A stretch of 64,000 nt of DNA from IMG/VR virus record IMGVR_UViG_3300037067_002687, positions 6,734 through 70,733 of that record; one strand, written 5' to 3'. This document shows positions 5,180-62,723 of the stretch, piece after piece. This stretch comes from a virus. Its lineage: Duplodnaviria; Caudoviricetes. The position numbers were made by a program, and so were the translations under genes. Each line of letters starts with the position of its first letter. Position 1 is the stretch's first letter. A model generated the notes under the pieces. It was given only the letters and a program-made list of their open reading frames with translations. It did no database searches and was not told where the DNA came from.

Positions 5180-5712
5180 CGCCTTATCGTAGCACACTCT
5201 ATCGTAGTGCTGCGCCCGTAGAGTTACGCCGCGCTGCTACCCATAGCGCTGCGCTACTCCCGAACGTGAGACTTGCTTCCCAGTGGAGGGACATAACGTC
5301 GTAATCCCTACTGCTGGGAAGCAACGTACTTTGCGCGCGTCAGAGTAGCGCGCGTCAGAGCGGAGCGCGGCGCGGCGTGGACGCGCGGCTCGTAGTAGCA
5401 TGGTCGCGCGGTGAAGCGTAGCGCCATGAGCGCATAAGAATCCTTGGTCCCGGCACATTGTTTTAACGTCGGAGCCAATGCCGTCCGGGTTCGCATCATA
5501 TTTCAGATGCACTTCCCCGCACGACCCAACGGCATCTATAGCCGTTTCCTTCGCCGACGAATCCCTCTTTGGGATTGACATGCTTTCGCGTCTACGGGAG
5601 CTTTATTCCCTCGGCACGGCACATGCTAGTTTAGCCGTTTTGCCCAGCCTGGGGCTATGTCTCGTTGGGGGTCCGCTGCTTATCCTGGACATGCCCAACG
5701 CAATCCTGACAG
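5180..5712 (-). ncRNA. candidate ~500-nt structured ncRNA
   Basis: Downstream of - strand promoter 5719-5747; ORFs lack an RBS; at least seven helices including 11-bp TTGCTTCCCAG/CTGGGAAGCAA (5273/5314) and 7-bp CGTTGGG/CCCAACG (5663/5694); 3' end unknown. Confidence 0.4.
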
Positions 5713-5720
5713 CTTGTCAG
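5706..5720. promoter_or_regulatory. operator copy 1 (CTGACAGCTTGTCAG)
   Basis: 15-bp near-palindrome overlapping the -10 of promoter 5719-5747. Confidence 0.8.
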
Positions 5721-5747
5721 TATACTACATTTCGAGGCAAAAGTCAA
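5719..5747 (-). promoter_or_regulatory. sigma70-type promoter (leftward)
   Basis: On - strand: TTGACT (5747-5742), 17 bp, TATACT (5724-5719). Confidence 0.75.
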
Positions 5748-5778
5748 GCCCAATAATTCCGGATTTTTGGTTTATCCC

Positions 5779-5807
5779 TTGACAGCCGACCTAATTGGTT
5801 GTAGAAT
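5779..5807 (+). promoter_or_regulatory. sigma70-type promoter (rightward)
   Basis: TTGACA (5779-5784), 17 bp, TAGAAT (5802-5807); back-to-back with the leftward promoter. Confidence 0.8.
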
Positions 5808-5892
5808 CGACAGTTAAGCATGGTTAGAAAAAGCCAAGAACCGCCAAAACTGAAGCCAAAGAAGCAAATTAAATCGAAGGACCAACCCCCCA

Positions 5893-6165
5893 ATGGCACG
5901 GCCTAAACTAGAAGGTGTTGTCGTCACGTATGAGGAAATCGCCTCCCTCTGCAAGTGTTCCATCAATCAGGTGCAGCAGGCCGCTACACGCTACAAGCAC
6001 GACCTGAGCGTCCAGCCGTGCGACATTTCGTCCTTGCGGTCGGTGTGCCTCTACATCGCCGCCAAGGCGGAGCCAGAGCTTCGGGAGAAGATAGCCGCCC
6101 TGTCGGTCCCGGTCATCTTCGACCGTGGCGTCTCGGGCCCTGGGAAGCTCCCAAGGACCTATTGA
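5893..6165 (+). CDS. putative HTH DNA-binding regulator (90 aa)
   Basis: VTYEEIASLCKCSINQVQQA is HTH-like; lone + strand gene with its own strong promoter; AAGGA RBS. Confidence 0.55.
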   Translation: MARPKLEGVVVTYEEIASLCKCSINQVQQAATRYKHDLSVQPCDISSLRSVCLYIAAKAEPELREKIAALSVPVIFDRGVSGPGKLPRTY

Positions 6166-6485
6166 ATCCAGAACTCAATCCCGAGGGGCTTGTCGGACGC
6201 CGGGGGATAATTCCTAGCGTCGTCGAACATCCTTTGAATCTCCCGGACAAGCTCCTCGCGCTTTGCTTCGCTGTAATTGGCGTAGTTTGCCGTGAAGTTT
6301 CTCCAGTTTGCGTATCCTTCCCCGTTATCCCTTGGGGTGCTGACGAAATTGAGACGAGAACGGCTTAGCTCCCTGGAGGGGTCTAGGCCCACCAGGGCGC
6401 CTCCGCTAGTCCTCGTCGTTGCGAGCCAAGCGGCCGGCACGGCCAAGGCCGACAACATCCGGCCGATGAATCCTCTTCGGTTCAT
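6159..6485 (-). CDS. twin-arginine signal peptide protein
   Basis: MNRRGFIGRMLSALAVPAAWLA (RRxFL-type Tat motif plus hydrophobic stretch); AAGGAG RBS. Confidence 0.7.
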   Translation of the reverse strand: MNRRGFIGRMLSALAVPAAWLATTRTSGGALVGLDPSRELSRSRLNFVSTPRDNGEGYANWRNFTANYANYSEAKREELVREIQRMFDDARNYPPASDKPLGIEFWIQ

Positions 6486-6756
6486 AGGGTCTCCTTTCGG
6501 GATATTCAAGTGACAGGGCGTCGGCTTCGCTGGCGATTTTCTCTAGGTGTGACTTGATGCCGGACGGAAGCCCGAGTATCGCATCGACAGCCGTCCCGAG
6601 ACGAGTTAGCGCCCAGACGGGCCAAGCAATCAACAACTCCGCAAAGTCGGATACCGATTCCGCCTCCTGTTCATGGATTCCCACCACAACCGTCTTCAGG
6701 CGATTTTTGACGCCGACTACGGGCGTGGATAGGGACACTTCCATTGCTTCCGACAT
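6406..6756 (-). CDS. hypothetical protein
   Basis: GGAGG RBS, downstream of promoter 6820-6848; 3' end overlaps the next gene. Confidence 0.55.
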   Translation of the reverse strand: MSEAMEVSLSTPVVGVKNRLKTVVVGIHEQEAESVSDFAELLIAWPVWALTRLGTAVDAILGLPSGIKSHLEKIASEADALSLEYPERRPYEPKRIHRPDVVGLGRAGRLARNDED

Positions 6757-6819
6757 GACAGACCTCCGTGCTGTTAGGGATTTTGATGAGTGGGCAATCA
6801 GGGATTTCCTGATGGCGGG

Positions 6820-6848
6820 ATTATAGCACTTCGCTCCTTTTCATGCAA
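6820..6848 (-). promoter_or_regulatory. sigma70-type extended -10 promoter
   Basis: On - strand: TTGCAT, 17 bp, TATAAT, preceded by TGC. Confidence 0.75.
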
Positions 6849-6851
6849 TAT

Positions 6852-7379
6852 CTATTTTCTCGTAATCGACCGGCGCAGACGAGCGTTGTCAAACAAGATG
6901 CACGACGCAATGTCTTTCGTGACGTCCTGGTTGCCTGCTACGTTAATCCATGGGCCGCGGCCGATGTTTTCTCTCCAGGGGACTAGCCTCTCGACGTAAA
7001 CCAGCCGGCGGAAGCCATGGCCAGAGAACCGACCGTCCGGGTACGGGACGTTGGTATTGAACCTCTCGCGGACGTCGTAATCCCCAACAAGGAAGACTGG
7101 CGAGGTTCCGTACAAAGCCGGGTGGATTCTCACAACAAACCGCTCGACGCCATGTTGGTGCATACTGACAAGAAGGGCGCAATCCTGCCGGTTCCAGGGG
7201 GAAAGCTCCAGGAACCTTGATTCGTAGTCTGGGTAGCATCGTTCAATGATGGAGTAGCGTTCAACACGCGCCGTCCAAGAGGGCTTTACGGCGATGGGTT
7301 CCGGCATCTTCTGGACCATCGGGATAAATGGGACCAAGCCGGCGATAGACGACTTTTTCAGGAAGTCCCTTCGGTTCAT
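6852..7379 (-). CDS. twin-arginine signal peptide protein
   Basis: MNRRDFLKKSSIAGLVPFIP (RRDFLK Tat consensus); AGGAGG RBS. Confidence 0.75.
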   Translation of the reverse strand: MNRRDFLKKSSIAGLVPFIPMVQKMPEPIAVKPSWTARVERYSIIERCYPDYESRFLELSPWNRQDCALLVSMHQHGVERFVVRIHPALYGTSPVFLVGDYDVRERFNTNVPYPDGRFSGHGFRRLVYVERLVPWRENIGRGPWINVAGNQDVTKDIASCILFDNARLRRSITRK

Positions 7380-7391
7380 AACTAATCCTCC

Positions 7392-7544
7392 TTAGAAAGT
7401 TTTTGCGACCTTCACCATACGAAACTCCGGACAGCCGCACGTCTCGCAGTGTCCGGGGTGCTTGTTTTGTTCCGGCGCTACCGTGTTGCATAGGTTGCAG
7501 ATAAACACGACCAGTTCTGGTTCTTTTTCGCTATTCTTCGCCAT
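7392..7544 (-). CDS. 50-aa zinc-ribbon protein
   Basis: Hand-translated MAKNSEKEPELVVFICNLCNTVAPEQNKHPGHCETCGCPEFRMVKVAKTF; two CxxC pairs; below ORF cutoff. Confidence 0.6.
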   Translation of the reverse strand: MAKNSEKEPELVVFICNLCNTVAPEQNKHPGHCETCGCPEFRMVKVAKTF

Positions 7545-7719
7545 CTATCGCGTCCTCAAGTTCCTGTATCCGCATATCCCATCCATCAACCTCCGGACTA
7601 AAGGCACCAACAAACGCCTTCATAACTTCAAGCTCTCCGAACGCGGATGTTTGTGCTAATTCTTCACGGACTAATTGAACGCACGCATCGGCCGCCTTTT
7701 GTGGGCTATCGTACTTCAT
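7531..7719 (-). CDS. hypothetical acidic protein (62 aa)
   Basis: AAGGAAG upstream of ATG 7719. Confidence 0.55.
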   Translation of the reverse strand: MKYDSPQKAADACVQLVREELAQTSAFGELEVMKAFVGAFSPEVDGWDMRIQELEDAIDGEE

Positions 7720-7737
7720 TCTTCTTCCTTTACTATA

Positions 7738-7858
7738 TGGCGGGGTGTGCGCACTCCCGGCAGTGGTATACCGCTTTTTCACTCAACTCCAAATAAGCCG
7801 GTTGCAAGCTATCGCGAATTGCTTGGCCGGTTCTTCTTTGTCAATCCGAGAACACCCC
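7738..7858 (-). ncRNA. candidate 121-nt RNA with tRNA-like acceptor stem and 3' CCA
   Basis: 5' GGGGTGT pairs with 3' ACACCCC, followed by G-CCA; inner helices TCTCGG/CCGGGA and CAAGC/GCTTG; no canonical T-arm. Confidence 0.35.
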
Positions 7859-8019
7859 ATATTTTGTAGCCGGGTAACTGACCCGCTCAACCCATAGTCG
7901 CATTACCCGGCGAGCCTCGTTACGAACGAGGTTATAGCAAAGAGGGGCGGGCGACGTCCACGTAGGGTTGGGACGTAAAGTCCACGGAGACGGGTAGGCT
8001 CGCCACGCCCCAGGATGAT

Positions 8020-9444
8020 TCATGCTGACAGAGCCTCCACGATTCCCTCTTCCTCGATTCCGATGCGGGGCATGGTGTAAGTCCGGTCGCAAACCAGGGA
8101 TAAATCCCCCGGTCGCTGGCCGATAATCAAGCCGATGCACCTTGCCTTTTCGGACTTTCTCCAGGAATTGAATTGTTGTACCATGTCGGACGGTAGGCTG
8201 CAAATGGCATCGGTCAGAAAAATGACGTCAGTCTTTCCTTTCGGGCATCCCAGGGATGGCCATATCTCGGGAAGCTCCTTAATCGGCACGTCCCGGCAAC
8301 TTCCACCGCTGTAGAAGTGTTCCAGCCATTCAATGAGTAGTTCCTGGTCCCAGGAGCCGGGTGCCATGACGGCCGTCGTCGGCGGGCATCCCCCGGAGTA
8401 GCCTATCAATGCCACCCAGCGGGATTGGTGTCGGGCAATCCATGACATGGCTAGGGCAAACGCCTTGGCATTGGCAATCGGCTCGCCTCCCATGGAGCCG
8501 GATTCGTCCACGACCACGACGATGGGACCTCTGGCCACCCGTTCGATGCCGTGGTACTCCCGGCACATGCAGGAGTTTTCGGCTATCCGGCGAAGCAGGT
8601 CGTCCTCTAGGTCCGGGTCCCCGAGAAGCGCCAGTTCGCTGGGAAGCAACCGGCCGGGGTCGCCGTCCAGGACCACGCCTACCATGTCGTCCATGCCGTG
8701 TAGGGTTTTCCTTCTCTGGAGAGCCGCACCGCATCGCCTGTAGCGTCCCGCTAGCTCCATGATACGTCGAAGCGTCTCATTGTTCCGGACGCTCTTAAAT
8801 AGCTCCTGGAGCTTCCCAGCGTTAAACGACTTGCCGGCCACGGCGCCATCCCCGCCCATTCCCAAGGCGCTCATGGCGTCTTCGGCGCTTTTGACACTTT
8901 CCTCGGCGTCTGTGATGGCATCCCCAGCGGCCGCCATGACTTCCAGGGGGTCCGGGTTAGACTTGCTCGTCGCCAGCTTCATCCAGCGGGACGAGAGGTC
9001 TACGGTCGCAATCCTTGCCGTCAACTCGTTCATTACCGTGTGCGTCCGTAGCGCCTGGAACTCGGGTGTCTCTAGGAGTTGCCGCACAAACTCGCCCCTT
9101 TCCTTACTGGCGCAGTTTTCGGCTAGCCTCGGGCTTGTCTGAAAGGCTGCGTTAAATAAGTCGGAAACAGTCAAGGACTCCGGGGACTCGGGAGACAGGG
9201 ACGGTTGGCCGGCGGCCACTATGAAAGTCAAGCCTTCCTGGTGAACGGTGGGAACCCCAAATAGCTCTCGCAGCCGTTCGGTCTCGTGCAGGACCTCATT
9301 TCCTTTACGGATTCCCCAGGAATCCAGGCGCAGGGCCGTGGGGCTTTCCGGCATGGAGGGGTCAACGAACTCCTCGGGCTCGACCTCTACGGCCGGTGGA
9401 GCTACGCCAAGCTCGTCAAGTAGTGAAGCAATCTCAGGGCTCAT
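8020..9444 (-). CDS. vWA (ViaA/YehP-like) domain protein
   Basis: C-terminal MIDAS VVVDESGSMGG...GGS...DVIFLTD; helical N-terminus; MoxR AAA in the same operon. Confidence 0.85.
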   Translation of the reverse strand: MSPEIASLLDELGVAPPAVEVEPEEFVDPSMPESPTALRLDSWGIRKGNEVLHETERLRELFGVPTVHQEGLTFIVAAGQPSLSPESPESLTVSDLFNAAFQTSPRLAENCASKERGEFVRQLLETPEFQALRTHTVMNELTARIATVDLSSRWMKLATSKSNPDPLEVMAAAGDAITDAEESVKSAEDAMSALGMGGDGAVAGKSFNAGKLQELFKSVRNNETLRRIMELAGRYRRCGAALQRRKTLHGMDDMVGVVLDGDPGRLLPSELALLGDPDLEDDLLRRIAENSCMCREYHGIERVARGPIVVVVDESGSMGGEPIANAKAFALAMSWIARHQSRWVALIGYSGGCPPTTAVMAPGSWDQELLIEWLEHFYSGGSCRDVPIKELPEIWPSLGCPKGKTDVIFLTDAICSLPSDMVQQFNSWRKSEKARCIGLIIGQRPGDLSLVCDRTYTMPRIGIEEEGIVEALSA

Positions 9445-9613
9445 GGTCGTGATGGTGCAGGTCGTGCTTCAGGTCGGCTATCTGACGCTGAAGGCGATTG
9501 AGTGTCAAGTGGAAACAAACCCACGACACGACGTTCGCCACGGTGACGAAAAGCAGGACGGTGTCCAATAGTAGTAGGTGGTCGTTTTGTGGAATCATTG
9601 TGGGTTTATCCAT
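9434..9613 (-). CDS. 59-aa membrane protein with His-rich tail
   Basis: Hand-translated MDKPTMIPQNDHLLLLDTVLLFVTVANVVSWVCFHLTLNRLQRQIADLKHDLHHHDHEP; overlaps both neighbours. Confidence 0.55.
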   Translation of the reverse strand: MDKPTMIPQNDHLLLLDTVLLFVTVANVVSWVCFHLTLNRLQRQIADLKHDLHHHDHEP

Positions 9614-10692
9614 TCCGCTAGTCTCTGAAGGGCCCCGTCGATTCTGGACTTCAGGCCGTCGCGTTGCTCCCGGCAGACGGCGAGGTCCGCGCGAAACTCC
9701 GCGCGGTCTTGAAGTAGCTCGTTAATTACGATGACCGGATTCACTCCTTCGCGTTGTCCTCCGCAGGAGTAGCAGGGGCACGGATTTTCGCCGTGCGCCA
9801 CGGTTGAGATGATTTCGCATTTACGGCAGAACATGAACCTCTTGCCGTTCTCCATGCTGCCATCACAAGCAAGGACCGTTCCGCGAAGCGAGGCGACTTC
9901 ATCCCGAAGGGCTGAGTTTGATGCCGAGAGCGTTGCGATGGTCTCGTTGAGTTTCCTGGACGTGGACTCTAGGGATTTAATCCTAGCGTCCTTGGAGGCA
10001 TTGTCGTTGAGTAGTTCCTTCTTTTTATTGAACATCTCACGCACCATGCCCCTCACGTTCACTACGGCGCGCGCGGCGCCGCATTTCTGGCACGGCGCGT
10101 ATTGGTTTCCCGGTGATATAGATTCTCTTGAGAGAGTGCCACAGTTTCCGCAATGCAGGTCAACCGCGTAGAACGTCGAGGAAAGAATAGCTTTATTGCG
10201 AAGTGATTCCACTTCAGCCCTGCTTTGACGCAACTGTACGGCCATGCTGTCGCGGTCTTCGGTCAGCGAGGAAACCAGAGTTTGCTCAGTCTTCAATAAC
10301 GCAATTAGATTCTGCTTTTCCTTAGCGAAATCGCGCTTCAGGTAATCGGAATAGTTTTTGGCGTTCCCTAGTTCGTCGCGGCAGACTTGCAGCTTCTCGC
10401 GCATCCGGTCACGCTCGAAAGCCATTCGCGCAACGGACTTGTATTTCTCGTTGACGTCTTCATGGTCAAATAACTTCTCCAGCGATTCCACGCGACACTC
10501 GATAAGACACTTCTCGACGGACTCACCCAGCGACTTTGCTACCTCAACAACAGTGGGCGTCCATGAACTTGGCGCGATGGCGGCAATGGACTCCAAGACC
10601 GACGGGCATATCCTGCCCCAGTCGGGATGACTCATGCTCGCCAGCATATACTGCGCCACTTTTACTGCGTTGTTCTTAGTTGTTTCATCCAT
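9595..10692 (-). CDS. coiled-coil protein with two zinc ribbons
   Basis: Heptad-rich segments alternating with CGNC...CQKC and CRKC...CYSC. Confidence 0.7.
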   Translation of the reverse strand: MDETTKNNAVKVAQYMLASMSHPDWGRICPSVLESIAAIAPSSWTPTVVEVAKSLGESVEKCLIECRVESLEKLFDHEDVNEKYKSVARMAFERDRMREKLQVCRDELGNAKNYSDYLKRDFAKEKQNLIALLKTEQTLVSSLTEDRDSMAVQLRQSRAEVESLRNKAILSSTFYAVDLHCGNCGTLSRESISPGNQYAPCQKCGAARAVVNVRGMVREMFNKKKELLNDNASKDARIKSLESTSRKLNETIATLSASNSALRDEVASLRGTVLACDGSMENGKRFMFCRKCEIISTVAHGENPCPCYSCGGQREGVNPVIVINELLQDRAEFRADLAVCREQRDGLKSRIDGALQRLAEWINPQ

Positions 10693-10696
10693 GATA

Positions 10697-10942
10697 TTAG
10701 CGAATCGCCTCCTCGGGTACGGGTTTGCGCATGAAACGTTGCACAATGGCCGATGATACTCCGCTGCCGTGATTTGTCAAGAGGCTAATCTGACTCCAGA
10801 CCGGGCCTCTTTGTTGATGCAGCCGGTGCATCCCGTCCAAGATTTTCATTAGTATTTCCTCGGGGTCCATGGCTCCCACGTACAACTCGCACCATACCTC
10901 GTTGGCTTGTCGCTGCCTCTCCGGTTTGCTCTGTTCCGCCAT
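10697..10942 (-). CDS. hypothetical protein
   Basis: GAGG RBS; fills the gap between the AAA and coiled-coil genes. Confidence 0.5.
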   Translation of the reverse strand: MAEQSKPERQRQANEVWCELYVGAMDPEEILMKILDGMHRLHQQRGPVWSQISLLTNHGSGVSSAIVQRFMRKPVPEEAIR

Positions 10943-10943
10943 G

Positions 10944-12086: not shown

Positions 12087-12358
12087 CGCTTAGCCTTTCT
12101 CGATTCGTTGATGGTTTCGATAACGGTCTTGGCGTGATGCTTCGAGAGGATGGAGTTGCAATTCCTCCAGTCGCGCAGCTTCACGTCCGACCGTTTCAGG
12201 AAGGCTCGGATGCTATGCCGCAGGGCAATGGCCTCTTCACTCTCCTCGGTGATGGAAATGCCGTAGACCCGGTCCGCGATGCCGCGAACAGAAAACCCTC
12301 CATTGCGGGCCATGGCAAGGATGCGCATCTTGCGGATGTCGTTAAGCATCGTCTTCAC
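12065..12358 (-). CDS. hypothetical basic protein
   Basis: 97-aa ORF overlapping both neighbours. Confidence 0.55.
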   Translation of the reverse strand: MKTMLNDIRKMRILAMARNGGFSVRGIADRVYGISITEESEEAIALRHSIRAFLKRSDVKLRDWRNCNSILSKHHAKTVIETINESRKAKRWRRKTA

Positions 12359-12726: not shown

Positions 12727-12737
12727 GGCTTTAACTC

Positions 12738-16481: not shown

Positions 16482-17057
16482 TCAGCCTTTCGTCGTTTCT
16501 TGACAAGTTGTCAGTATACCATTTTTTTCAAAGGAACGCAATAGCAATTCCAGGCGAGCCAAGGCATTCCAGGCGTGGTGGGCGGCGTGCAGCAACCCAG
16601 ACTCGGGGTCTGTCGCCTCGCTCCCTTCGGCCAGGATATGACGCAGCCCGGCAGCGGTGTACCGCTCGAATCCTTCAGGAACCGACTCCCATCCGTTGCG
16701 GGTGTACTTGGCGGCGCCATAGGTCGAGACTTCGCCGACCTTACTCAAGGCACGTCCGAATCCGATAAGAAGACTGAGGTCCGGCTTCCCATGGTCGAGC
16801 TTTGCGCCGGGTTCATGCTGGGCAATTCCATTGGGGTCCACCGCCGGCCAGACATGCTCCTTGTCGCCTTGGCGTTTCACGAACTCGTCGTAAGCCTTGG
16901 ACAACAGCGAATCGCCTGAGCCCGAGGGGACCCAGCGTCCTTTCTCGACATCGTACTCAGCGAGTGGCAAATACGTACCCGGAGGCTGCATTGTTTCGGT
17001 CGGTGCCTTGTCGCCCGGCAAATACCCGGACACCTTAGTTAGTGACGTATGCTCCAT
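16482..17057 (-). CDS. dATP/dGTP diphosphohydrolase-like (DUF5664-type) protein
   Basis: GAKLDHGKPDLSLL...YGAAKY..NGW...RH...DPESGLLHAAH.AWNAL motifs. Confidence 0.85.
   Translation of the reverse strand: MEHTSLTKVSGYLPGDKAPTETMQPPGTYLPLAEYDVEKGRWVPSGSGDSLLSKAYDEFVKRQGDKEHVWPAVDPNGIAQHEPGAKLDHGKPDLSLLIGFGRALSKVGEVSTYGAAKYTRNGWESVPEGFERYTAAGLRHILAEGSEATDPESGLLHAAHHAWNALARLELLLRSFEKNGILTTCQETTKG
16500..16541 (-). promoter_or_regulatory. operator copy 2 (TTGACAAGTTGTCAG, 16500-16514) + sigma70 promoter
   Basis: - strand TTGCGT (16541-16536), 17 bp, TATACT (16518-16513); lies inside the last codons of 16482-17057. Confidence 0.8.
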
Positions 17058-22823: not shown

Positions 22824-22865
22824 CTGACGAGTTGTCAGTTTACTCTTTTTCTCCGTTCGTGTCAA
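22824..22865 (-). promoter_or_regulatory. operator copy 3 (CTGACGAGTTGTCAG, 22824-22838) + sigma70 promoter
   Basis: - strand TTGACA (22865-22860), 17 bp, TAAACT (22842-22837), embedded in the 3' end of the SMC-like gene. Confidence 0.8.
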
Positions 22866-24234
22866 TAGCAGATTCGGGATTTTTCTCCTTATTTTTCCCG
22901 TTCTCGATAATGACCGCGCACCGCTTTTCGTCGTCGTCGTTGCGCGTGACCAATTCGAGAATCATCTGGTAATCGCTGTCGCGGAGAAGTTTCTCCAGTG
23001 AATCCAGGGACTCATTGTCGAGGTCGTTCCCGTCTTGGCAGACCATCAAGCGAAGGCGCGGGTTGAGCGCCATACCAATCTTAGCCGACGTGGCAATACG
23101 CGCCGACTTGGAGGCTTGCGAGAACGGAAGCCCGTTGAACAGAACGCCTTCCGAATCAAGAGACAGTCCAGGTAGAGGCCACGTGGCGCTGGTTAAGACG
23201 TCCTCCTGCTTCTTCTTGTTGGCCTCCAGGGTCTCGTTGAGCTTGTCGGCCTCGGTCTCGATGGCGTGAAGGTCTCCGAAGAGTGCGGACTTGGCCAAGT
23301 TGTCGCGGACCTTCGCGTTGATGCTGTCGGCGTCCTTGATTTGCTGGTGGACCTCATCCAGGGACGGGTCAACCAGGGCGTCAACGAATTGCTTCTGATT
23401 CTCGGCGTTCGCCAAAGTCTCGTCGATTTCCCGCTCCAGGAAGTCGCGTTGCTTCCTGGCGTTGGCGAGTTGCTCCTCGAACGCGGCAATCTGCTGGTCC
23501 GTCTCGGTCTTGGTAGTCCGTAACGCGCCGCAGTCGTTGATGTACTTATGCAGGACTTCGCGATGGCTCGCGTTGGTCTTGAGAACCTCCTGCCGTCGGT
23601 TCAACTCCTCCAGGAGGGAGTTGGCGGAAACAGGCTGCTCCGGTACGCCGGGATGCTTCGGCATGGCTTCGTACCGTGCCCGCATGTTCTTGGCGTCCCT
23701 GTTGACCAAGGCTCTTTGCTTGTAGAGCCGTTCGTACTCCTCGCGAAGGCCAGATAAGTCAACGCCCGTGACCTTCTCGATAAGCGCCTTCTGTTCCTTC
23801 GGCGCCATCCGCTCGAAAGCCAAAGGGTCGAAGCCGCGAAGCTCGAAGAGGCGTTGCAGCAACTTCCGTGGGCTGGGAAGTTCCTCTCCATCCTTGTCGG
23901 TGACGCGGATTTGCTCCACGACCGCACCGTCACGCCGACGTTTAAGGTACAACTCGACATTGAACCCGTCGGATAGCTTCCCATCGGTAGCATCATCCGA
24001 CACGGACGGCTCGATGTCCACCTTGACCCAGCCTTCGTCTTCTCCGTCCTTGAGTGCAACCTCGGGCCAGTCGCATCCGGACCGTCCGCAAAGGGCCATA
24101 CCGACGGCCGTCAAGGCAGACGTCTTGCCGTGGCCGTTCTTTCCTCCGAAGAGGCATAGGTAATGTCCGTCAAGTAGGCAGTCGATGTCCTCGATGCGCA
24201 TGACGTTATGAGCGCGTAATCTCGATACCCTCAT
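22840..24234 (-). CDS. SMC/Rad50-like coiled-coil ATPase
   Basis: Walker A GGKNGHGKT, long coiled coil, signature-like FSQAS and degenerate Walker B MVCQDG. Confidence 0.8.
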   Translation of the reverse strand: MRVSRLRAHNVMRIEDIDCLLDGHYLCLFGGKNGHGKTSALTAVGMALCGRSGCDWPEVALKDGEDEGWVKVDIEPSVSDDATDGKLSDGFNVELYLKRRRDGAVVEQIRVTDKDGEELPSPRKLLQRLFELRGFDPLAFERMAPKEQKALIEKVTGVDLSGLREEYERLYKQRALVNRDAKNMRARYEAMPKHPGVPEQPVSANSLLEELNRRQEVLKTNASHREVLHKYINDCGALRTTKTETDQQIAAFEEQLANARKQRDFLEREIDETLANAENQKQFVDALVDPSLDEVHQQIKDADSINAKVRDNLAKSALFGDLHAIETEADKLNETLEANKKKQEDVLTSATWPLPGLSLDSEGVLFNGLPFSQASKSARIATSAKIGMALNPRLRLMVCQDGNDLDNESLDSLEKLLRDSDYQMILELVTRNDDDEKRCAVIIENGKNKEKNPESAIDTNGEKE

Positions 24235-26081: not shown

Positions 26082-26096
26082 CTGACAAGTTGTCAG
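26082..26096. promoter_or_regulatory. operator copy 4 (CTGACAAGTTGTCAG)
   Basis: Perfect 7-1-7 palindrome upstream of the recombination operon; no clear -35/-10 found. Confidence 0.75.
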
Positions 26097-26530: not shown

Positions 26531-26545
26531 GTGACAAGTTGTCAG
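26531..26545. promoter_or_regulatory. operator copy 5 (GTGACAAGTTGTCAG)
   Basis: Intergenic, between terminator and holin-like gene. Confidence 0.75.
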
Positions 26546-26557: not shown

Positions 26558-26599
26558 AAGAAAACCCGCCCGTGGCAGTGTGTCTGCACCACGGGCGGG
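26558..26599 (-). terminator. intrinsic terminator
   Basis: 11-bp CCCGCCCGTGG/CCACGGGCGGG stem followed on - strand by TTTTCTT. Confidence 0.85.
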
Positions 26600-29397: not shown

Positions 29398-29450
29398 ATT
29401 ATAGCACTAAGGCGATTCGATGTCAATACCGTTTTTTGACAATTTGTCAG
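29398..29450 (-). promoter_or_regulatory. consensus sigma70 promoter + operator copy 6 (TTGACAATTTGTCAG, 29436-29450)
   Basis: - strand TTGACA (29426-29421), 17 bp, TATAAT (29403-29398) with TG; operator ~10 bp upstream of -35, inside the last codons of the giant gene. Confidence 0.85.
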
Positions 29451-43342: not shown

Positions 43343-43384
43343 CTGACAGCTTGTCAGTATACCACGTAACGAAATGGAATGCAA
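43343..43384 (-). promoter_or_regulatory. operator copy 7 (CTGACAGCTTGTCAG, 43343-43357) + sigma70 promoter
   Basis: - strand TTGCAT (43384-43379), 17 bp, TATACT (43361-43356). Confidence 0.8.
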
Positions 43385-43394
43385 TACCAGTTTT

Positions 43395-44150
43395 TTATTC
43401 CGTGACAAAAACAGCAATCACGGTCAGGTTTTGCGCGTCACCGGTCGAGCCGGCTGTGACCTTTACTTCAAGGGATGTCCCCCTTGCAAGTATCTGCTGA
43501 GCCGCCACAATGGTTGCCCCCGCGTTGGCACCTGGAGTGCCGGCGGCTGGCACGATAGGCCCGTTGTTGGTGTTCTCGCTGCACGCCTCGGTCCCGGCGT
43601 TCATTAGATTCACATTCGGCTGGTTCGCACCGCCATCCGAAATGGACTGGTAAACGTAAAACTGGCACAAGGCGACCGAACGCCAGAGGTTTTTCCAGAA
43701 GGTCTTACCAATCGACGCCAGCTTCGTGCTGGTGGACGAGGCCGCGTAGAGGCCCGGCAGCGACAGCGTCACCGTATGAACATGGTCAGCCTGCCCAACG
43801 TAAAGGGACGTCAGGTCAGCCGAAAGCGACACACCGGCGACGTCAATGTAGGAGTTGGCGGACAAGGCCGATATGACGCCATACCGCACCGTTGCCGAGC
43901 CGGTGATGGTGTAGCGAAGCGGAAGACCGACGGCCACCACGGACGTATCCGACATCGCCAGCCTTGTGGTTGATGTTGGTGTCGCCGTGTACTTCGCCGC
44001 CGAAACGAGCCTCCAGGAGGATTGCGTGGACACGTAATCGTAGAGCGAACCCACCGTCACCTTGTTGGTGGTGGTAGACTGCACGATGGGCAAGACATCG
44101 GCATCCGAGATTGCGCCGGACGACGGAAGGGCGGATATTTTGGTACTCAT
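43395..44150 (-). CDS. tail fibre/appendage-like protein
   Basis: KISALP...DADVLPIVQ..TT.KVTV N-terminus typical of fibre anchors; T/S/A-rich beta composition. Confidence 0.6.
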   Translation of the reverse strand: MSTKISALPSSGAISDADVLPIVQSTTTNKVTVGSLYDYVSTQSSWRLVSAAKYTATPTSTTRLAMSDTSVVAVGLPLRYTITGSATVRYGVISALSANSYIDVAGVSLSADLTSLYVGQADHVHTVTLSLPGLYAASSTSTKLASIGKTFWKNLWRSVALCQFYVYQSISDGGANQPNVNLMNAGTEACSENTNNGPIVPAAGTPGANAGATIVAAQQILARGTSLEVKVTAGSTGDAQNLTVIAVFVTE

Positions 44151-54767: not shown

Positions 54768-54799
54768 ATTCCTTATCTCCTCAATTCAAAGTGTTTCGT

Positions 54800-54836
54800 A
54801 AAAGGCCCGGCGGCCCGGTGAGCGCGGGCCGTCGGG
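54800..54836 (-). terminator. intrinsic terminator after MCP
   Basis: CCCGACGGCCC/GGGCCGCCGGG stem, then CCTTTT on - strand. Confidence 0.7.
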
Positions 54837-54859
54837 GTTCCTAGCGTGGCCGAACCACA

Positions 54860-55900: not shown

Positions 55901-55969
55901 CCTATGGCCTCCTTATACGTCCTTGATTGTTACTATCGAATCCGGATTGCAGTCCGAATAGGCCACACT

Positions 55970-57097: not shown

Positions 57098-57100
57098 TTC

Positions 57101-57156
57101 CTGACAAGTTGTCAGTTTATACTATTACTTATACCCGATTTGAGACAAAAAATCAA
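57101..57156 (-). promoter_or_regulatory. operator copy 8 (CTGACAAGTTGTCAG, 57101-57115) + probable promoter
   Basis: Perfect palindrome just upstream of the scaffold start; - strand TTGATT (57156-57151), 17 bp, TATAAG (57133-57128). Confidence 0.7.
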
Positions 57157-57190
57157 TCCCATAAATCGAAGACCCTACACCCCGTTGGTA

Positions 57191-57373
57191 CTAATTCTCA
57201 AGTGAGCGTCGGTCAATGACGTCGAATGTCTCACTGGGTTCGTCGATGGGACCGTCGAAATCTTCATCGACCGGCTCGTCGGGGTGAGACTCATGCAACA
57301 TTCCGAATCCGGCGACGAGCCGCGCCGAAAAAGACTCGTCCATGGATTCCTTCTGGGAGCGTTTCCTTCTCAT
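57191..57373 (-). CDS. small acidic protein
   Basis: 60 aa, ATGA-coupled. Confidence 0.5.
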   Translation of the reverse strand: MRRKRSQKESMDESFSARLVAGFGMLHESHPDEPVDEDFDGPIDEPSETFDVIDRRSLEN

Positions 57374-57825
57374 CCGTGAACCCTCCGTACTAGCTCCTGC
57401 GCTGCCTCAAAGGCGCCGGGGCCAAAACTGAACCCGGTTCCCTTACTCAGATTAGTGAGCCCTCGGTGTTGTGTGTAACGGTCAAAGGCGGCCACGGAGC
57501 CGCAATGGACCTGATAAAACTCGGGAACCGACGGGTCTTGGCGGAACTCGATGTCCGTGAATCCGTGTTTGACGCGGTCCTCTTCCATGCCGGAAAGGTT
57601 CGTGCAGCCAAACCCCAGGGAATCGCTCACGATGGGGCGAGTCTCACGCGGGGCGGCTGTCATAGGCTTAGCGTCGTGCTTCTCCAGGTGAAGGCAGCGA
57701 CGCGCAGTCACTCCATCGGCCAACGTGAGGAAGCCTGCATTCTGCTCCATCATGGTGGCCCAATCGACATAAACCAGGGACCCGTCGTCCTCCCGTCGGA
57801 AAACGTAGCGTTTTTCGTCCTCCAT
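57370..57825 (-). CDS. hypothetical protein downstream of portal
   Basis: AGGAGAG RBS before ATG 57825. Confidence 0.65.
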   Translation of the reverse strand: MEDEKRYVFRREDDGSLVYVDWATMMEQNAGFLTLADGVTARRCLHLEKHDAKPMTAAPRETRPIVSDSLGFGCTNLSGMEEDRVKHGFTDIEFRQDPSVPEFYQVHCGSVAAFDRYTQHRGLTNLSKGTGFSFGPGAFEAAQELVRRVHG

Positions 57826-57839
57826 GCTATTCTCTCCTC

Positions 57840-59639
57840 CTAACTTCCTTGGATAGGTTGCATTCCGCCGGACTGTTGCGGCTGTCGAGCCATATCGAGC
57901 CACGCCTGCTGCTTCTCAATGGCGCGGTTCTCCGGCGTTCCCCCGGTGGCTACGGATTTACGGACGTACTCACGCGACGTCTGCGCGGGGGCGGACGGCG
58001 GGGTGGCCGGGCCTAGGTCGGGAGGCGAGCCAGCGTCCGGCGAGGAAAACTGAATCACGTCCCTGAGACGCGGAACACGGAGAAGCTCGGCAAGCATTTC
58101 CGTGAGCGACTGCATGTTAATCTGCCCGGACTGGGCCGCAAGCGTCTGGGCCATGGGCATGTAGAGCTTCTGGATAAGCGCCAGCACGGTCTGCACCTTC
58201 TGCTCTGGCGGCTGATAGGGCATCGAATGGACATCGACGGTCAGGTCGTAGTCAAAGAAGGTGCCCATGCGTCGTTCTGGCGTCCAGGTGGCATCAATGC
58301 TCATCCCTTCGGCGCCTGGTATTGGCATCCGGGCCGGGATAACCTTGACCGCGTCGTTCCAGAGGAGCCAGCCGAGATTGCGGACCACTTTCGTCGTGGA
58401 TTCGTGGGCCTGCATCCGCATGGACGCCTCCTTTTTCGAGGCACCGCTGGCGATAATCTGTTCCTGGCCCAGGGTGTCGCCCTGCTGCCCAAGACCAAGC
58501 AGGGAGGGGAGATTGCCGGCCATGCGGTCCAACAACTCGACCGATTGAATCAAGAAGGCGTGACCCGAGGCATCGGCCCCTCCCATCTTCAGGACTCCTA
58601 TGTCTTTCGTGTCGGCTACGCACACCCAGTTGCCATCGTCGGTTCTCTGGACCTTGGCAGCGTCGTCCGCGGCGGCCGGGGTGTAGGTGTAGACGTCCTT
58701 CTGCCGGCGAGCCTGACGCGATTGCTTGCGAATCAGGTTGTTGCACAACTGGCAAAGACTGCGCAGGTGGGAAGCGGGAGAGGCCGGCATAATGTTGTCC
58801 GGCACGTCATTGAACGAGAGCTTGTGATAGGGCCCAAGCTCCGGGCCGTCCCAACCGAAATCCGTCAGTACGCCGCCCTTCCCTTGGAATCGCATCTGCC
58901 CATCCATGGCAAACGTGTAGATTCGCTTCTCTCGGGGAATCCAGACGTCCATCAGGTCAATCATGGGCTCGACGTCGTCTTGGTCGGTCTGGTAGCCCTT
59001 GGAGAGCATTTCCGTGCGCATCGTCAACTCAGACATCGTCGCCTTATTGGTCGGCGCCAACTCCTCAACGACGCGCGGGTCGTAGATGGGGTCCTCCAGG
59101 GTGGAGAATGGCACACGATAGGCGTCGGCCGCATACATCATCTGGTCCCAGCGGGTCGCCGTCATGTCGTGGACCCAATCGTCGATGGACACGCACGACA
59201 CCGTCGGTGTTCCGGGGTCGATGCTCTTGCCCCACAACTCGACCTCTCCGATGTCGGACAAATGGACCTTGAGGATTCCGATGCAGAAGAAGGCGTTCTT
59301 CACCCACTGCCGCAAGACCTCTTCGATGCGAATCTCTTCGAGCATCTTATTGATGGCCACTGCGTACTGCTGCGAAAAGAACTTCAGATTCGAGTGGGGA
59401 GTCTCCACTGTGACCCAGGGACGATTCGCCACTAGGGACATGGTGTAAGCATCCACGGCTTGCCCCATGAGATTCAGGTACGTCTCGTAGCGCGGACGCT
59501 CCGATTCATGCCCGTACCCAGAACCGGCGTACTCTTCCACCAATGCTTGATTGATTCGCCGGAATGGTTCCAGCTTACGCCACGATGCGTTCATGGCCTT
59601 AAACAGTCTCCAGCGATGCTCCTCTTTATTCAGGTTCAT
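57840..59639 (-). CDS. portal protein
   Basis: 599 aa directly after TerL; helical, podovirus/P22-like size; Q/P-rich barrel-type C-terminus. Confidence 0.85.
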   Translation of the reverse strand: MNLNKEEHRWRLFKAMNASWRKLEPFRRINQALVEEYAGSGYGHESERPRYETYLNLMGQAVDAYTMSLVANRPWVTVETPHSNLKFFSQQYAVAINKMLEEIRIEEVLRQWVKNAFFCIGILKVHLSDIGEVELWGKSIDPGTPTVSCVSIDDWVHDMTATRWDQMMYAADAYRVPFSTLEDPIYDPRVVEELAPTNKATMSELTMRTEMLSKGYQTDQDDVEPMIDLMDVWIPREKRIYTFAMDGQMRFQGKGGVLTDFGWDGPELGPYHKLSFNDVPDNIMPASPASHLRSLCQLCNNLIRKQSRQARRQKDVYTYTPAAADDAAKVQRTDDGNWVCVADTKDIGVLKMGGADASGHAFLIQSVELLDRMAGNLPSLLGLGQQGDTLGQEQIIASGASKKEASMRMQAHESTTKVVRNLGWLLWNDAVKVIPARMPIPGAEGMSIDATWTPERRMGTFFDYDLTVDVHSMPYQPPEQKVQTVLALIQKLYMPMAQTLAAQSGQINMQSLTEMLAELLRVPRLRDVIQFSSPDAGSPPDLGPATPPSAPAQTSREYVRKSVATGGTPENRAIEKQQAWLDMARQPQQSGGMQPIQGS

Positions 59640-59646
59640 AATAGCC

Positions 59647-61584
59647 TCAATCTGTCCAGTCGGACTCTATGCCTTCCGCGCCTAACGTCTGAGCGATGTC
59701 CCATAGGGTTCTCTCATCCCATCCGTCTCCAGCCTTCTTGGCGTCGTCGTATTGTTTTTGCCTCCAGGCTAACGTGCCTTCCGGAGGGTCGGTTACATCA
59801 TTTCGCTTTTTGTCGTCGGCGTCTTTCCCCATTAAGGGTCTGTCTTTCATCGCTTGCAGACAGACGCACGCTGCAATGACCCTATCGCCGTGCGCCTTGC
59901 CTTTCGAGGAATCGTCTTTCGTGGTCGCCGCCGAAGAGTGAGCAATGAGACCATTCTGTCGGACGTACTGTGAGCATTCTTTCACGAGTGAGTCTGAGCG
60001 CACGGTAATCTCGTGAGACTTCACGGCAGACTGGAACTCAGAAAACATTTTCTCTTTCGTGGTTTCCGAAGTATGCCAACCAATTTCCTGTGTGCGCTTA
60101 CGACCTCGACGTGAGTACACTCCACGGAAGAAGATATTCACGTATCCGCGAGACTTGACTCTCGCCGTAAAGGCGGAACCGGGACCATTGATTTCCCAAG
60201 CCAAGTAAGCGTTATGGAACCACTTCGCCATCACAATTGCCATGTCAGCAAAGTCGTCGGGTAACATCGTGTTGGTTGCGAACGATGCCACCTCTTCCCC
60301 ACTACGCAGGTCGAATACTTCAATCGTCGAGTTGGACGACCAGGAACCACCCGAACCGGTCGCTACGTCACAGCCGATAACGTAGTGCCCCTTCTCTGGT
60401 TTGTTTCCTGGTCCTAGCGGTCGCCATATCTCGACGGGCCCACCGTTTTTGGTGCTGAAGTCGGGCTCTAGTGTCTCTTCGTTGTAGTCCATTTCGCCCA
60501 CAACGATGGGAGACATAACGTCCTTGCCAGCTTTCTCGAAAAACTCGTTGCCGAACACGCGGTAAGCAGAACCTCCATAGTCTCGGTCAAGCTCTTGGGC
60601 GATGGATTGCGTCGTAGCCCTGGGCCGGTCGCATTCATGGTCGTACCAGGGGGAGCGAGTAACGCCCTCAATCTTGAACCCCTTCTTCCGAAGCCGAGAA
60701 ATAAGGTCCTTGGATTTCTCCTCGTACTTCGCCGGCAGCGGGTTCTTGGGGTCAATGGACTTCATGTGACCATCGACAATGGTGTACAGCCCGCGGTTCT
60801 TGGTGGGGTTGTCTTTCCAGTCAATGGTGATGCGAATCATTGAACTCGGTTCGTGCATCAACTCGTAGTAAGCGCCCTCGGCACCCTTCGGAGTGGATAC
60901 CACAAGACGTGAGTTGGTGACGTGTTGCGTCGAGGCCATGGCTTCTTCATCGGGACCGCGCTTGAACTTGGCAAGCTCGTCCATGAGGAACCACTTCTTA
61001 CGGCCGCCGGACGCGACATCTCCCACTGCCGAGTATCCCGTAATCGTAGAGCCATTCGAGAGATTACGTAGCGTATGGTCGCCAAGGTTTCTACGGAAGT
61101 CGGGAACCATCCAGGCGGGCAGCTTAGTAAGCTCCCAGTCAATCTTCCAGAAGAGAGAATCCGGGTCCTCGGGGTTATCGACCGCTAACTCATTACGTGA
61201 GACAAGGCCAATGGCCGAAAGGGGATTGAACGTCCAGTCGTGAACGGCGAACAGGCAGGCAATCCAGGAGATGCCCTCACCGCGAGACTTCTCGGCGCCG
61301 ATGTCCTCGAACCCTAGATTCTTCGCAATCGTCTGGATGACGGGAATCTGATGCTCCCACGGAATAAAGGGCACGATGGGTGGAAGAGAGATGCCTCCCA
61401 CCTTGCGGGGCCTTGGTTCGTAGACCCAGCAGAAGGCAGTCATCCAGAAGAGAATATCCTCGCGACACGCCACTGTGAGCGCATTGCGAAACTCGACGTC
61501 CGTCAAGGCGCGTTCCCGCACCTCCAGACGATAGAGGAGATTCTTCTCAAGGTCCCGAGGGACCTGTTTGTAAAACTCGACCAT
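59647..61584 (-). CDS. terL: terminase large subunit
   Basis: Walker A KSRGEG.SW, Walker B FLMDE, VVSTP, nuclease IGCDVA...WEIN...HGDRV. Confidence 0.92.
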   Translation of the reverse strand: MVEFYKQVPRDLEKNLLYRLEVRERALTDVEFRNALTVACREDILFWMTAFCWVYEPRPRKVGGISLPPIVPFIPWEHQIPVIQTIAKNLGFEDIGAEKSRGEGISWIACLFAVHDWTFNPLSAIGLVSRNELAVDNPEDPDSLFWKIDWELTKLPAWMVPDFRRNLGDHTLRNLSNGSTITGYSAVGDVASGGRKKWFLMDELAKFKRGPDEEAMASTQHVTNSRLVVSTPKGAEGAYYELMHEPSSMIRITIDWKDNPTKNRGLYTIVDGHMKSIDPKNPLPAKYEEKSKDLISRLRKKGFKIEGVTRSPWYDHECDRPRATTQSIAQELDRDYGGSAYRVFGNEFFEKAGKDVMSPIVVGEMDYNEETLEPDFSTKNGGPVEIWRPLGPGNKPEKGHYVIGCDVATGSGGSWSSNSTIEVFDLRSGEEVASFATNTMLPDDFADMAIVMAKWFHNAYLAWEINGPGSAFTARVKSRGYVNIFFRGVYSRRGRKRTQEIGWHTSETTKEKMFSEFQSAVKSHEITVRSDSLVKECSQYVRQNGLIAHSSAATTKDDSSKGKAHGDRVIAACVCLQAMKDRPLMGKDADDKKRNDVTDPPEGTLAWRQKQYDDAKKAGDGWDERTLWDIAQTLGAEGIESDWTD

Positions 61585-61601
61585 CCGTGGTCCGGTTGCT
61601 A

Positions 61602-61994
61602 CTAATCGTTCCAGGACGAGTAATCGACTATCGTGTCGGGCTCGTTCTGTCGGAAATACTTATCCAGGGAATCTTCATCCTGGGTAAGCCGTTGGAACTT
61701 GGACGGAGCGAAGGTGCCTGCCTCTTCGTCCCAGTGGCCGCCCTCAATGGGCGTACCGTTGGCCATCTTCGACCCGTGATAAATCGACTCATCACTGAAG
61801 GTGGGATGGTTGGGCTTCTTGTACTTGTCGGTGAGGTGGCCCTCTTCAGGGTCGGCGCCGGCATTCGCCTTCCACCAACCACGCATGTCATAATCCGCTA
61901 AGTCTTTGCCGCGCTTGTGCGTCTTGGCCCAGTCACGAAAGGCAGACTCTTCGGACGCGGAAAGCGGTGTGTTGTAAAGGTCAAGCATATCCAT
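61602..61994 (-). CDS. conserved phage hypothetical protein
   Basis: DYDMRGWW...GHLTDKYKKPNHPTFSDESIY pattern; sits between TerS candidate and TerL. Confidence 0.7.
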   Translation of the reverse strand: MDMLDLYNTPLSASEESAFRDWAKTHKRGKDLADYDMRGWWKANAGADPEEGHLTDKYKKPNHPTFSDESIYHGSKMANGTPIEGGHWDEEAGTFAPSKFQRLTQDEDSLDKYFRQNEPDTIVDYSSWND

Positions 61995-62008
61995 TAGTGA
62001 GACTACTC

Positions 62009-62617
62009 CTATTCGACGTGTTCGCGGTGCTGGATTCCAGCAAGCAACTTTTTGACTTCTTTGATGGACAACTCCTCCTTGGTGTCCTGATTGGCGACCG
62101 AATCACTCTTTTTGTCCTGAGACAAGACCTGCTTGAAGAACTCATGTGGGTAGTTCGCCCAGTGTTGCAGGGAGAACACCGCCGACCGTGAGGGCGCCTT
62201 GCCGCACGGCGAGATAAGCACGTCTTCGGCCGTGATGACAACACCCTTCATCTTGTTCGGTTGTCGGGCGAGCCGCGTCATGGCGGGGTGAGAGCGTATC
62301 CAGTCCATTTCCACGGACGGTTGGGCCTTGTCGGGCAGGTCCGCTATGGCCGCGCGGAACTCATCCTCGGAAATGCCGGCCTTCTCCTCGTCGGTGAGTG
62401 GCGGAGGTGGGGCGGCCGAGGGCAAGAGGCCCGTCTTGACTGCGTTGCGCTCTAGGTCGGGTACGGGCTCCAGTCTCTCGACGGGTTTCACCACCATGGG
62501 AGGCAACGGAGGCATCCCGGCGCTAAAGCCGATAAGCCGCTGCGCTTCCTCAATGGAGACCTTCTCAGTCGCCGCGGCCGGAGGAGGAGGGTCCGCACAA
62601 AAAACCATCCCAGCCAT
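62009..62617 (-). CDS. putative terminase small subunit
   Basis: First gene of the packaging operon; helical; assigned by position only. Confidence 0.45.
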   Translation of the reverse strand: MAGMVFCADPPPPAAATEKVSIEEAQRLIGFSAGMPPLPPMVVKPVERLEPVPDLERNAVKTGLLPSAAPPPPLTDEEKAGISEDEFRAAIADLPDKAQPSVEMDWIRSHPAMTRLARQPNKMKGVVITAEDVLISPCGKAPSRSAVFSLQHWANYPHEFFKQVLSQDKKSDSVANQDTKEELSIKEVKKLLAGIQHREHVE

Positions 62618-62630
62618 AAAAAAATACCTC

Positions 62631-62723
62631 TTGACAGACTCAGCCCGACTTGCTATATTGACAAATTGTCAGTCAATTCCGTGCCATAAGAAAGAGTATA
62701 CCACAAAAAATCCGAAAAGTCAA
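62631..62723. promoter_or_regulatory. face-to-face sigma70 promoters with operator copy 9 (TTGACAAATTGTCAG, 62658-62672)
   Basis: + strand TTGACA (62631), 17 bp, TATATT (62654-62659); - strand TTGACT (62723-62718), 17 bp, TATACT (62700-62695). Confidence 0.8.

Follow-up and report, generated by a model that had tools for sequence, protein, structure and literature searches.

A dispersed set of nine palindromic operator-like sites in a novel tailed phage and a small Cro-fold protein as its candidate regulator

The 64,000-nucleotide stretch of viral DNA analysed here (hereafter the window) represents bases 6734-70733 of a 70,733-bp IMG/VR virus contig (IMGVR_UViG_3300037067_002687) and harbours a 15-bp palindrome, CTGACAA-N-TTGTCAG, which is repeated nine times, mostly at the heads of transcription units. 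There is good evidence that this palindrome is a genuine regulatory element. Its nine copies are probably the operators of one phage-encoded, dimeric helix-turn-helix (HTH) regulator, the most likely candidate for which is a 73-aa protein encoded at the end of the early region. That the protein binds the sites and dimerises is inferred in the account that follows, as are the direction of its regulatory effect and the way of life of the phage.

All nine copies listed in a first-pass annotation of the window were recovered with the search pattern CTGACAANTTGTCAG at up to one mismatch, two of them perfect and seven with a single mismatch (Table 1). When the whole 70.7-kb genome was shuffled 300 times with its dinucleotide composition preserved, matches at this stringency averaged 0.007 per shuffle (maximum 1). 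At up to two mismatches the observed count is still nine, compared with 0.18 in the shuffles; as the count does not change, the set is a crisp one with no intermediate or half-decayed copies. Relaxation to three mismatches gives 12 matches, nine of which are the set itself, against 1.85 expected, and the three matches with three mismatches are located within genes and are at chance level. The 6.7 kb by which the contig exceeds the window contain no further copy. Bases 1-149 of the contig recur at its end (window 63852-64000) with a 1-nt indel between the two versions, which indicates that the genome is circularly closed or terminally redundant and that nine copies are the full complement. The database record lists the genome as linear and 80% complete. 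When gene boundaries are taken from a self-trained gene call, all nine copies lie outside gene interiors, in intergenic sequence or in the final ~45 nt of a coding sequence, a class that makes up 19% of the genome (0.19^9, or about 3e-7). The element is thus in clear excess over both shuffled and mid-gene sequence, and no copy had been missed. Among the matches listed in an exact 15-mer scan of IMG/VR, most are single chance occurrences.

The genome belongs to a novel, uncultured tailed phage of a deep-branching, ORFan-rich lineage, and apart from its large terminase and a few fragments it has no PHROG matches. Its leftward genes extend from 62617 down to ~6400 and comprise, in order, packaging, capsid-module, tail and ejection genes, the last including one for a 3294-aa protein, followed by a lysis-position cassette, recombination and replication genes and an integrase/MoxR/vWA block. 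A rightward block of ~14 kb, composed of small ORFans, starts at 62739, crosses the contig junction and ends at 5175. The gene for the 3294-aa protein has no megablast match among GenBank phages; the protein contains N6_Mtase, ResIII, AAA_34 and Helicase_C_4 (Strawberry notch) domains and matched no polymerase family. When 29 early proteins, 37 middle ones and this giant protein were screened against Pfam, no RNA polymerase or sigma factor was identified; with no such phage enzyme found, transcription by the host enzyme is taken as the default. Promoters were sought with a position-weight matrix (PWM) for the sigma-70-type consensus, a scan that reports consensus matches only, and on sequence all recognisable promoters appear to be of the host sigma-70 type.

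Five of the nine sites (5706, 16500, 22824, 43343 and, with the rightward promoter P_R, 62658) stand in an identical register to such a promoter, with an offset of -2 to the -10 hexamer, a 17-bp spacer and PWM scores of 10.8-17.5 bits (18.5 bits for P_R in the scan of Table 1). Two bases are common to the site and the -10 hexamer, an overlap that brings the dyad centre of the site to about +1 and dictates the C (or T) at position 5 of the -10. The TA(T/A)ACT -10, the -35 at 17 bp and the two-base overlap described in the first-pass annotation hold at the four leftward members of this group; the fifth, P_R, had been overlooked. By its match to the consensus, P_R would be the strongest rightward promoter of the genome, and it heads the ~14-kb rightward early operon, which wraps the contig ends and terminates near 5175. 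Face-to-face with it, P_L heads the packaging operon, which encodes a 202-aa protein, TerL (PHROG) and the portal (Pfam). Site 62658 lies between the two, so that the early and packaging promoters are opposed across one operator. Among the leftward promoters, 43384-43356 heads an operon that ends in the gene for the 3294-aa methyltransferase/Sno-helicase protein, and 22865-22837 heads the replication block (helicase, Prim-Pol) and is written into the end of the 22840-24234 gene. Together with the operators at 16500, which falls within the last codons of a 191-aa dGTP-diphosphohydrolase-like gene (16482-17057), and at 29436, this accounts for the three promoters or operators that had been placed in the last codons of upstream genes. 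The remaining promoter of this class, 5747-5719, points leftward into ~500 nt without a credible open reading frame (ORF), towards the 3' end of the 73-aa HTH gene.

The other four sites are arranged differently. Site 29436 is followed, after a gap of 9 bp, by the -35 of a promoter with the perfect sequence TTGACA-17-TATAAT (29426-29398). Site 57101 precedes the capsid-module operon, the first gene of which encodes the 370-aa protein, and weak -10 candidates are located 3 or 12 bp upstream of the site. The position-weight scan found no recognisable promoter at 26531 or 26082; the former is a candidate roadblock-type site, and the PD-(D/E)XK (DUF3799) nuclease gene that follows the latter heads the recombination genes. 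The view that the palindrome precedes nearly every module is therefore borne out for the heads of most units and requires amendment elsewhere. Two sites lack a promoter, one lies upstream of a -35 rather than on its promoter, 62658 serves a rightward as well as a leftward unit, and a site is missing from no fewer than three strong promoters, namely 5779-5807 (+), 6848-6820 (-) and 2512-2540 (+). The weak promoter of the integrase operon, 14318-14290 (-), also lacks one. The genes behind the three strong site-less promoters are candidates for expression in an otherwise silenced genome. These promoters drive, respectively, a 90-aa orphan, a 116-aa protein that an earlier note called exported by the twin-arginine translocation (Tat) pathway, and a tiny acidic-peptide cassette. 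Two elements are common to the site-adjacent promoters: the -35 is extended to g(c/g)taTTGaca, as it is in the relative L127, and a cGGAAT box stands 10-20 bp further upstream (shared stretches at 5742-5770, 16536-16560, 22860-22885, 43379-43405, 29426-29435, 62673-62685 and 62723-62730). These features may be specific to promoters of the host or may form the site of a second factor.

The two halves of the palindrome are not equally conserved. On the + strand, TTGTCAG is unchanged in all nine copies, and the single mismatches of the seven imperfect copies are confined to positions 9, 10 or 15. In every one of these seven, as had been noted for leftward transcription, the perfect half is the transcription-proximal one, i.e. 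the half first met by RNA polymerase, an outcome expected by chance about once in 64. Roughly six of eight imperfect copies in the related phages G001 and L127/L139 show the same bias (hand tally). Orientation of a palindrome is meant here only as a bias in half-site quality; the asymmetry itself is real.

TerL relatives of the phage, fetched from IMG/VR, are 28-56% identical to its TerL, and none of them contains the exact 15-mer of the window. A de novo search for repeated palindromes revealed variants of its core, TGACA-N3-TGTCA, in relatives with TerL identities of 50-56%, at up to 15 copies per contig (Table 1; L139 represents the same phage as L127). Sites ahead of a TerS-like gene in G001 and L127 correspond to that at the head of the packaging operon in the window. 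Likewise, L124, L127 and L130 have a site between a 151-aa gene and the 370-aa capsid-module gene, in synteny with 57101. Promoter positions recur as well. In G001, sites at offsets 0 and +9 directly follow a -10, whilst others in relatives lie 26-41 bp downstream of it (including offsets +26/+28). Sites 7-9 bp upstream of a -35 (offsets -51/-53) are present at G001 5352, L127 3146 and 8561 and L139 14738, and at L139 11102 and L141 5015 the site itself supplies the -35. The L127/L139 phage (L127:3146-3239; L139:79-172) also has opposing consensus promoters with overlapping -10 hexamers (AGTATAAACT), flanked symmetrically by two palindromes; the overlap implies that one promoter is occupied at a time, in the manner of a compact bidirectional switch. 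Neither the motif nor any repeated palindrome was found in L128, L129 and L145, loci which cover structural genes only, and an alignment around the G001 sites revealed no convincing conservation beyond the 15-mer. As judged from these sequences, the element is of long standing in the lineage and is associated with promoters, and both its outer and its inner bases drift; it is likely to be functional and lineage-conserved. The pattern of drift looks like that of the operator-repressor pairs that define immunity groups.

Table 1. Palindromes, associated promoters and candidate regulators in the window, and variants of the palindrome in related phages
Feature	Position	Strand	Description
Operator 62658	62658-62672	.	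last 2 nt of P_R -10 and +1; ~+17 to +31 of P_L
P_R	62631-62659	+	TTGACA-17-TATATT; 18.5 bits (PWM scan)
P_L	62695-62723	-	TTGACT-17-TATACT, TGg extended -10; face-to-face with P_R
Operator 57101	57101-57115	-	perfect copy; 18 nt upstream of ATG of 370-aa protein
Operator 43343	43343-43357	-	shares 2 nt with -10 of TTGCAT-17-TATACT (43384-43356)
Operator 29436	29436-29450	-	within last codons of 3294-aa gene
Operator 26531	26531-26545	-	right after terminator-like hairpin (26566-26578); 19 nt before ATG of 75-aa gene
Operator 26082	26082-26096	-	perfect copy; 31 nt before start of PD-(D/E)XK (DUF3799) nuclease gene
Operator 22824	22824-22838	-	shares 2 nt with -10 of TTGACA-17-TAAACT (22865-22837)
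Operator 16500	16500-16514	-	shares 2 nt with -10 of TTGCGT-17-TATACT (16541-16513)
Operator 5706	5706-5720	-	shares 2 nt with -10 of TTGACT-17-TATACT (5747-5719)
73-aa XRE/Cro-fold HTH protein, candidate regulator	4954-5175	+	last gene of rightward early block
90-aa orphan, second, weaker candidate regulator	5893-6165	+	HTH-like helices; promoter 5779-5807
Variant in L124 (contig G001, flagged provirus)			GTGACAC-N-GTGTCAC; 13 copies in L124 and 2 elsewhere on the 28-kb contig
Variant in L127			cTGACAC-N-GTGTCAg; 6 copies
Variant in L130			GTGACAG-NN-TGTCAC; 4 copies
Variant in L126			CTGACA-N3-yGTCAG; 4 copies

The proposal that the 73-aa protein reads these sites draws on its distribution and its modelled fold. 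A HMMER profile search with this protein and its G001 homologue identified about 98 relatives, mostly of 65-100 aa; a single-protein scan for the 73-aa HTH in viral contigs found nothing, and a word-index protein search matched the protein only to itself. The AlphaFold2 model, built on a 60-sequence alignment, has a mean predicted local distance difference test (pLDDT) score of 94.6 and contains four helices (residues 3-14, 16-23, 27-34 and 44-53). A profile search of the PDB gave weak, generic HTH matches only. The best Foldseek matches of the model are SinR, HipB, XRE regulators, P22 C2 and 434 Cro, with template modelling (TM) scores of 0.56-0.65 and a probability of ~1, but with E-values of about 0.06. 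SinR, HipB, P22 C2 and 434 Cro are dimeric readers of inverted repeats. G001 has a homologue of the 73-aa protein, encoded at the distal end of its site-rich early region; L139 and every other motif-bearing contig for which the early region is available also have one, and the 73-aa protein is the only non-structural protein common to the window, G001, L139, L141 and L138. Eight metagenome contigs fetched via the HTH family, which represent about three further phages, gave 5, 6, 3 and 3 matches to TGACA-N3-TGTCA, against shuffle means of at most 0.33. Furthermore, the recognition helix starts with GAL here and with STL in the relatives, and the inner operator bases are AA/TT here and AC/GT in G001 and L127/L139; this apparent covariation of helix and operator is suggestive.

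A number of observations weigh against this assignment. The match of the 73-aa protein to Pfam HTH_3 (E=0.003, 18 bits) is below the cut-off of 23, the covariation rests on three or four phages, and the contigs selected through the HTH family are those of related phages, so that their sites may reflect common descent rather than recognition. When the HTH family was searched for in 401 Planctomycetota genomes, distant homologues were found in two, with no such motif nearby. Most sites in G001, L130 and L126 are without a recognisable sigma-70 promoter. In addition, a terminator-like hairpin lies ahead of the HTH gene, for which neither a recognisable promoter nor a strong ribosome-binding site of its own is evident. 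A repressor that is produced from its own repressed operon, and that also sits on late promoters, needs an extra mechanism for the expression of late genes, and no mechanism by which late genes would escape the repressor was found. As most genes are ORFans, an unrecognised activator or antiterminator may be among them, and hence a cascade.

Further features adjoin the HTH gene and its relatives. Just upstream of it, ~380 nt (4573-4953) are without a credible ORF, GC-rich and helix-rich; this stretch ends in the terminator-like hairpin (4905-4922) and matches no Rfam family. With the ORF-less sequence at 5180-5700 on its other side, the gene would be flanked by two possible non-coding RNAs. In G001 (IMGVR_UViG_3300048578_000341), the gene directly downstream of the HTH homologue encodes a CsrA homologue (L134:1-216 (-), Pfam CsrA, E=3e-17), and a copy of the palindrome is located between both genes. 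One of the distant homologues, in the Planctomycetota genome G295, lies near 21 copies of a palindromic repeat, CCCCACACACGTGGGG, with a 61-bp period (L150:24-1300), an array that resembles clustered regularly interspaced short palindromic repeats (CRISPR) and is unrelated to the operator set.

The expression problem of the 73-aa protein would be solved if the repressor gene stood outside its own operators, and an arrangement of this kind exists for the 90-aa orphan, the other regulator named in the first-pass annotation. Its site-less promoter, 5779-5807 (16.4 bits), is back-to-back with the 5706 promoter, as might suit an immunity repressor gene, and the protein gives weak HTH hints (Sigma70_r4_2 and HTH_23, E 0.03-0.05), HTH-like helices in a low-confidence single-sequence model and ESM Atlas leads to Cox-like and HTH families with scores below 0.9. 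However, the model is poor (pLDDT 53.5), and no homologue of the orphan was found anywhere searched, including the motif-keeping relatives G001, L139 and L141. Of the two proteins that had been put forward, 4954-5175 has thus gained comparative and structural support, whilst 5893-6165 is the weaker candidate. That the operators are read by another protein altogether, be it this orphan, an unrecognised phage protein or a host factor, is considered unlikely.

For a host factor, the relevant genome is that of the candidate host clade. The only host clue for the lineage is the 346-aa probable capsid protein, which has a 62%-identical relative on a 9.8-kb contig (L145; CALJUK010000405.1) binned into an uncultured Planctomycetaceae metagenome-assembled genome (MAG); the lineage is possibly Planctomycetes-infecting. 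In this 5.3-Mb MAG, the host assignment of which is weak, the exact core occurs six times against ~5 expected, i.e. at chance. The flanking bases of the motif, moreover, drift between related phages. The suggestion that the palindrome could be the box of a LexA-type host regulon consequently finds no support in the only candidate host-clade genome, and we know of no LexA box of any phylum that matches CTGACAA-N-TTGTCAG.

If the 73-aa protein is the regulator, its mode of action would depend on the position of each site. A dimer bound at the five sites centred on +1 would block open-complex formation. At 57101, and at 62658 with respect to P_L, a dimer would be placed from a few to ~30 bp after the start and would act as a roadblock, as it would between genes at the promoter-less 26082 and 26531. 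Site 29436, upstream of a -35, would be of an auxiliary type, an arrangement that is recurrent in relatives. In this way the regulator would shut down most leftward units together with the early operon, either as the immunity repressor of a lysogen or, alternatively, as a Cro-like shut-off protein. A temperate immunity state is suggested by the presence of an integrase and by the flagging of G001 as a provirus, and on the immunity view the operator-less promoters would drive the genes expressed in the prophage.

The upstream sites raise the question of whether the regulator could be wholly or partly an activator, or a dual protein that represses at the +1 sites and assists polymerase from 7-9 bp upstream of the -35. 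Phage lambda CI, which also aids RNA polymerase at PRM, is an example of such a repressor. The spacing of a site followed by a -35 after 7-9 bp is found in four phages at six promoters, each of which stands at the head of a late-type unit: in this phage the lysis-position unit, in G001 and L127 the units for packaging and capsid. These promoters are, however, near or at consensus (TTGACA-17-TATAAT here) and should need no activation, a site centre at ~-52 and the class I/II positions of CRP-type activation lie on opposite faces of the helix, and in L127 such sites double as downstream sites of the opposing promoter. An activating role is accordingly regarded as quite improbable.

A different possibility is that the element acts in RNA, as a leader hairpin of 6 bp and a 3-nt loop that is bound by a protein or affects stability, translation or antitermination. 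The sites are oriented with transcription, three of those in the window lie 17-19 nt before a start codon, and many in G001, L130 and L141 shortly precede ribosome-binding sites with no visible promoter. Between phages, paired positions change together (C-G to G-C at 1/15, A-T to C-G at 7/9), although such compensatory changes are equally expected for the half-sites of a dimer. A CsrA gene stands beside the HTH gene in G001, but the motif that CsrA would have to read contains no GGA. The geometry of the promoters argues against such a role: at five sites the predicted start is mid-palindrome, which would leave the RNA without the 5' arm; the sites of the -51/-53 class (29436, G001 5352 and L127 3146 and 8561) lie upstream of the adjacent promoter; and two sites in L127/L139 flank a promoter pair symmetrically. 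In addition, all seven mismatches would give C-A or C-C rather than G-U in the leftward transcript, the distance from site to start codon varies from 12 to >150 nt, and no Rfam family was matched. Action in RNA is therefore judged improbable. Several defined elements were also ruled out, namely an RNase III site, for which the stem is too short, an intrinsic terminator, as there is no T run, and a CsrA site, given the lack of a GGA in the motif; a reading as parS was likewise rejected.

Finally, the palindromes could be docking sites outside transcription (for partition, packaging, replication or a nucleoid-type function) or the hairpin promoters of an N4-type virion RNA polymerase. The copies are dispersed and a 3294-aa virion-type protein is encoded; extrusion of a hairpin of 6 bp and 3 nt is possible, and six of the seven variants keep a G-T wobble on the + (template) strand. 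This wobble pattern, however, largely restates the half-site asymmetry, the giant protein has N6-methylase and Strawberry-notch helicase domains with no polymerase match, and the Pfam screens contained neither a ParB-type nor a polymerase family. The exact 2-nt register with the -10, seen at five of the sites, is indicative of transcription initiation by the host polymerase, and both proposals are held to be very improbable.

Operators dispersed over a phage genome have precedents. In cluster A mycobacteriophages (L5 gp71, TipsytheTRex repressor), one repressor silences many units from more than 20 sites in promoters and short intergenic gaps, the orientation of which correlates with the direction of transcription; these sites are asymmetric 13-mers, read by a monomer of ~183 aa that contains an HTH and a stoperator domain (PMC9283540). 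In common with these phages, promoter-overlapping and promoter-less intergenic sites coexist here. The better half-site faces the oncoming polymerase, which for a palindrome is a bias in half-site quality and recalls the orientation of stoperators; the analogy drawn in the first-pass annotation is an apt one. In contrast, the sites described here are 15-bp palindromes of 7-1-7 architecture, and the candidate is a 73-aa protein with a single four-helix domain that presumably acts as a dimer. The two systems have unrelated hosts and are not related in sequence. No gp71-like protein turned up in the Pfam and PHROG screens, with no search aimed at gp71 having been made. The C1 repressor of P1 acts at 22 dispersed operators, which are asymmetric 17-mers (ATTGCTCTAATAAATTT), with the helpers Lxc and Coi (PMC8546580). 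As in P1, one (proposed) repressor would have operators at the promoters of many units rather than in one immunity region, whereas the sites in the present phage are palindromic and fewer. C1 itself is a 283-aa protein.

In its modelled fold and small size, the candidate resembles lambdoid Cro, CI and C2 and other XRE dimers. Proteins of this type bind 14-18 bp inverted repeats as dimers, at operators that overlap -10/+1 or -35. In lambdoid phages the operators are clustered at two control regions and late genes are controlled via antitermination, unlike the dispersed arrangement found here. The conserved inverted repeats (CIRs) of the Streptomyces phage phiC31 are also palindromic sites dispersed beside promoters; these 17-bp sites of the c repressor occur at many intergenic positions by phage promoters, the repressor is larger and has several isoforms, and the early promoters are not of sigma-70 consensus. 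The network described here would work like the dispersed operators of P1 and of cluster A and is a member of neither group.

A broader interpretation can be put forward tentatively, and with considerable doubt. The 73-aa Cro-fold protein could be the single master switch of a lineage of ~70-kb uncultured phages, one that would occlude promoters and also form an orientation-sensitive dimeric roadblock at 'palindromic stoperators', with operator and recognition helix co-evolving to give immunity groups and with no temporal cascade.

Systems of this kind, in which dispersed operators place a whole genome under control, are already known, and what is new is the present example. In this ORFan-rich lineage, the operator network both maps the transcription units and offers a testable pair of regulator and operator. 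The half-sites CTGACAA, GTGACAC and GTGACAG are natural specificity variants that can be used for the divergence of immunity groups. The network also adds a palindromic version, read by a putative small dimer, to the short list of phages in which one repressor has direct control over most of the genome.

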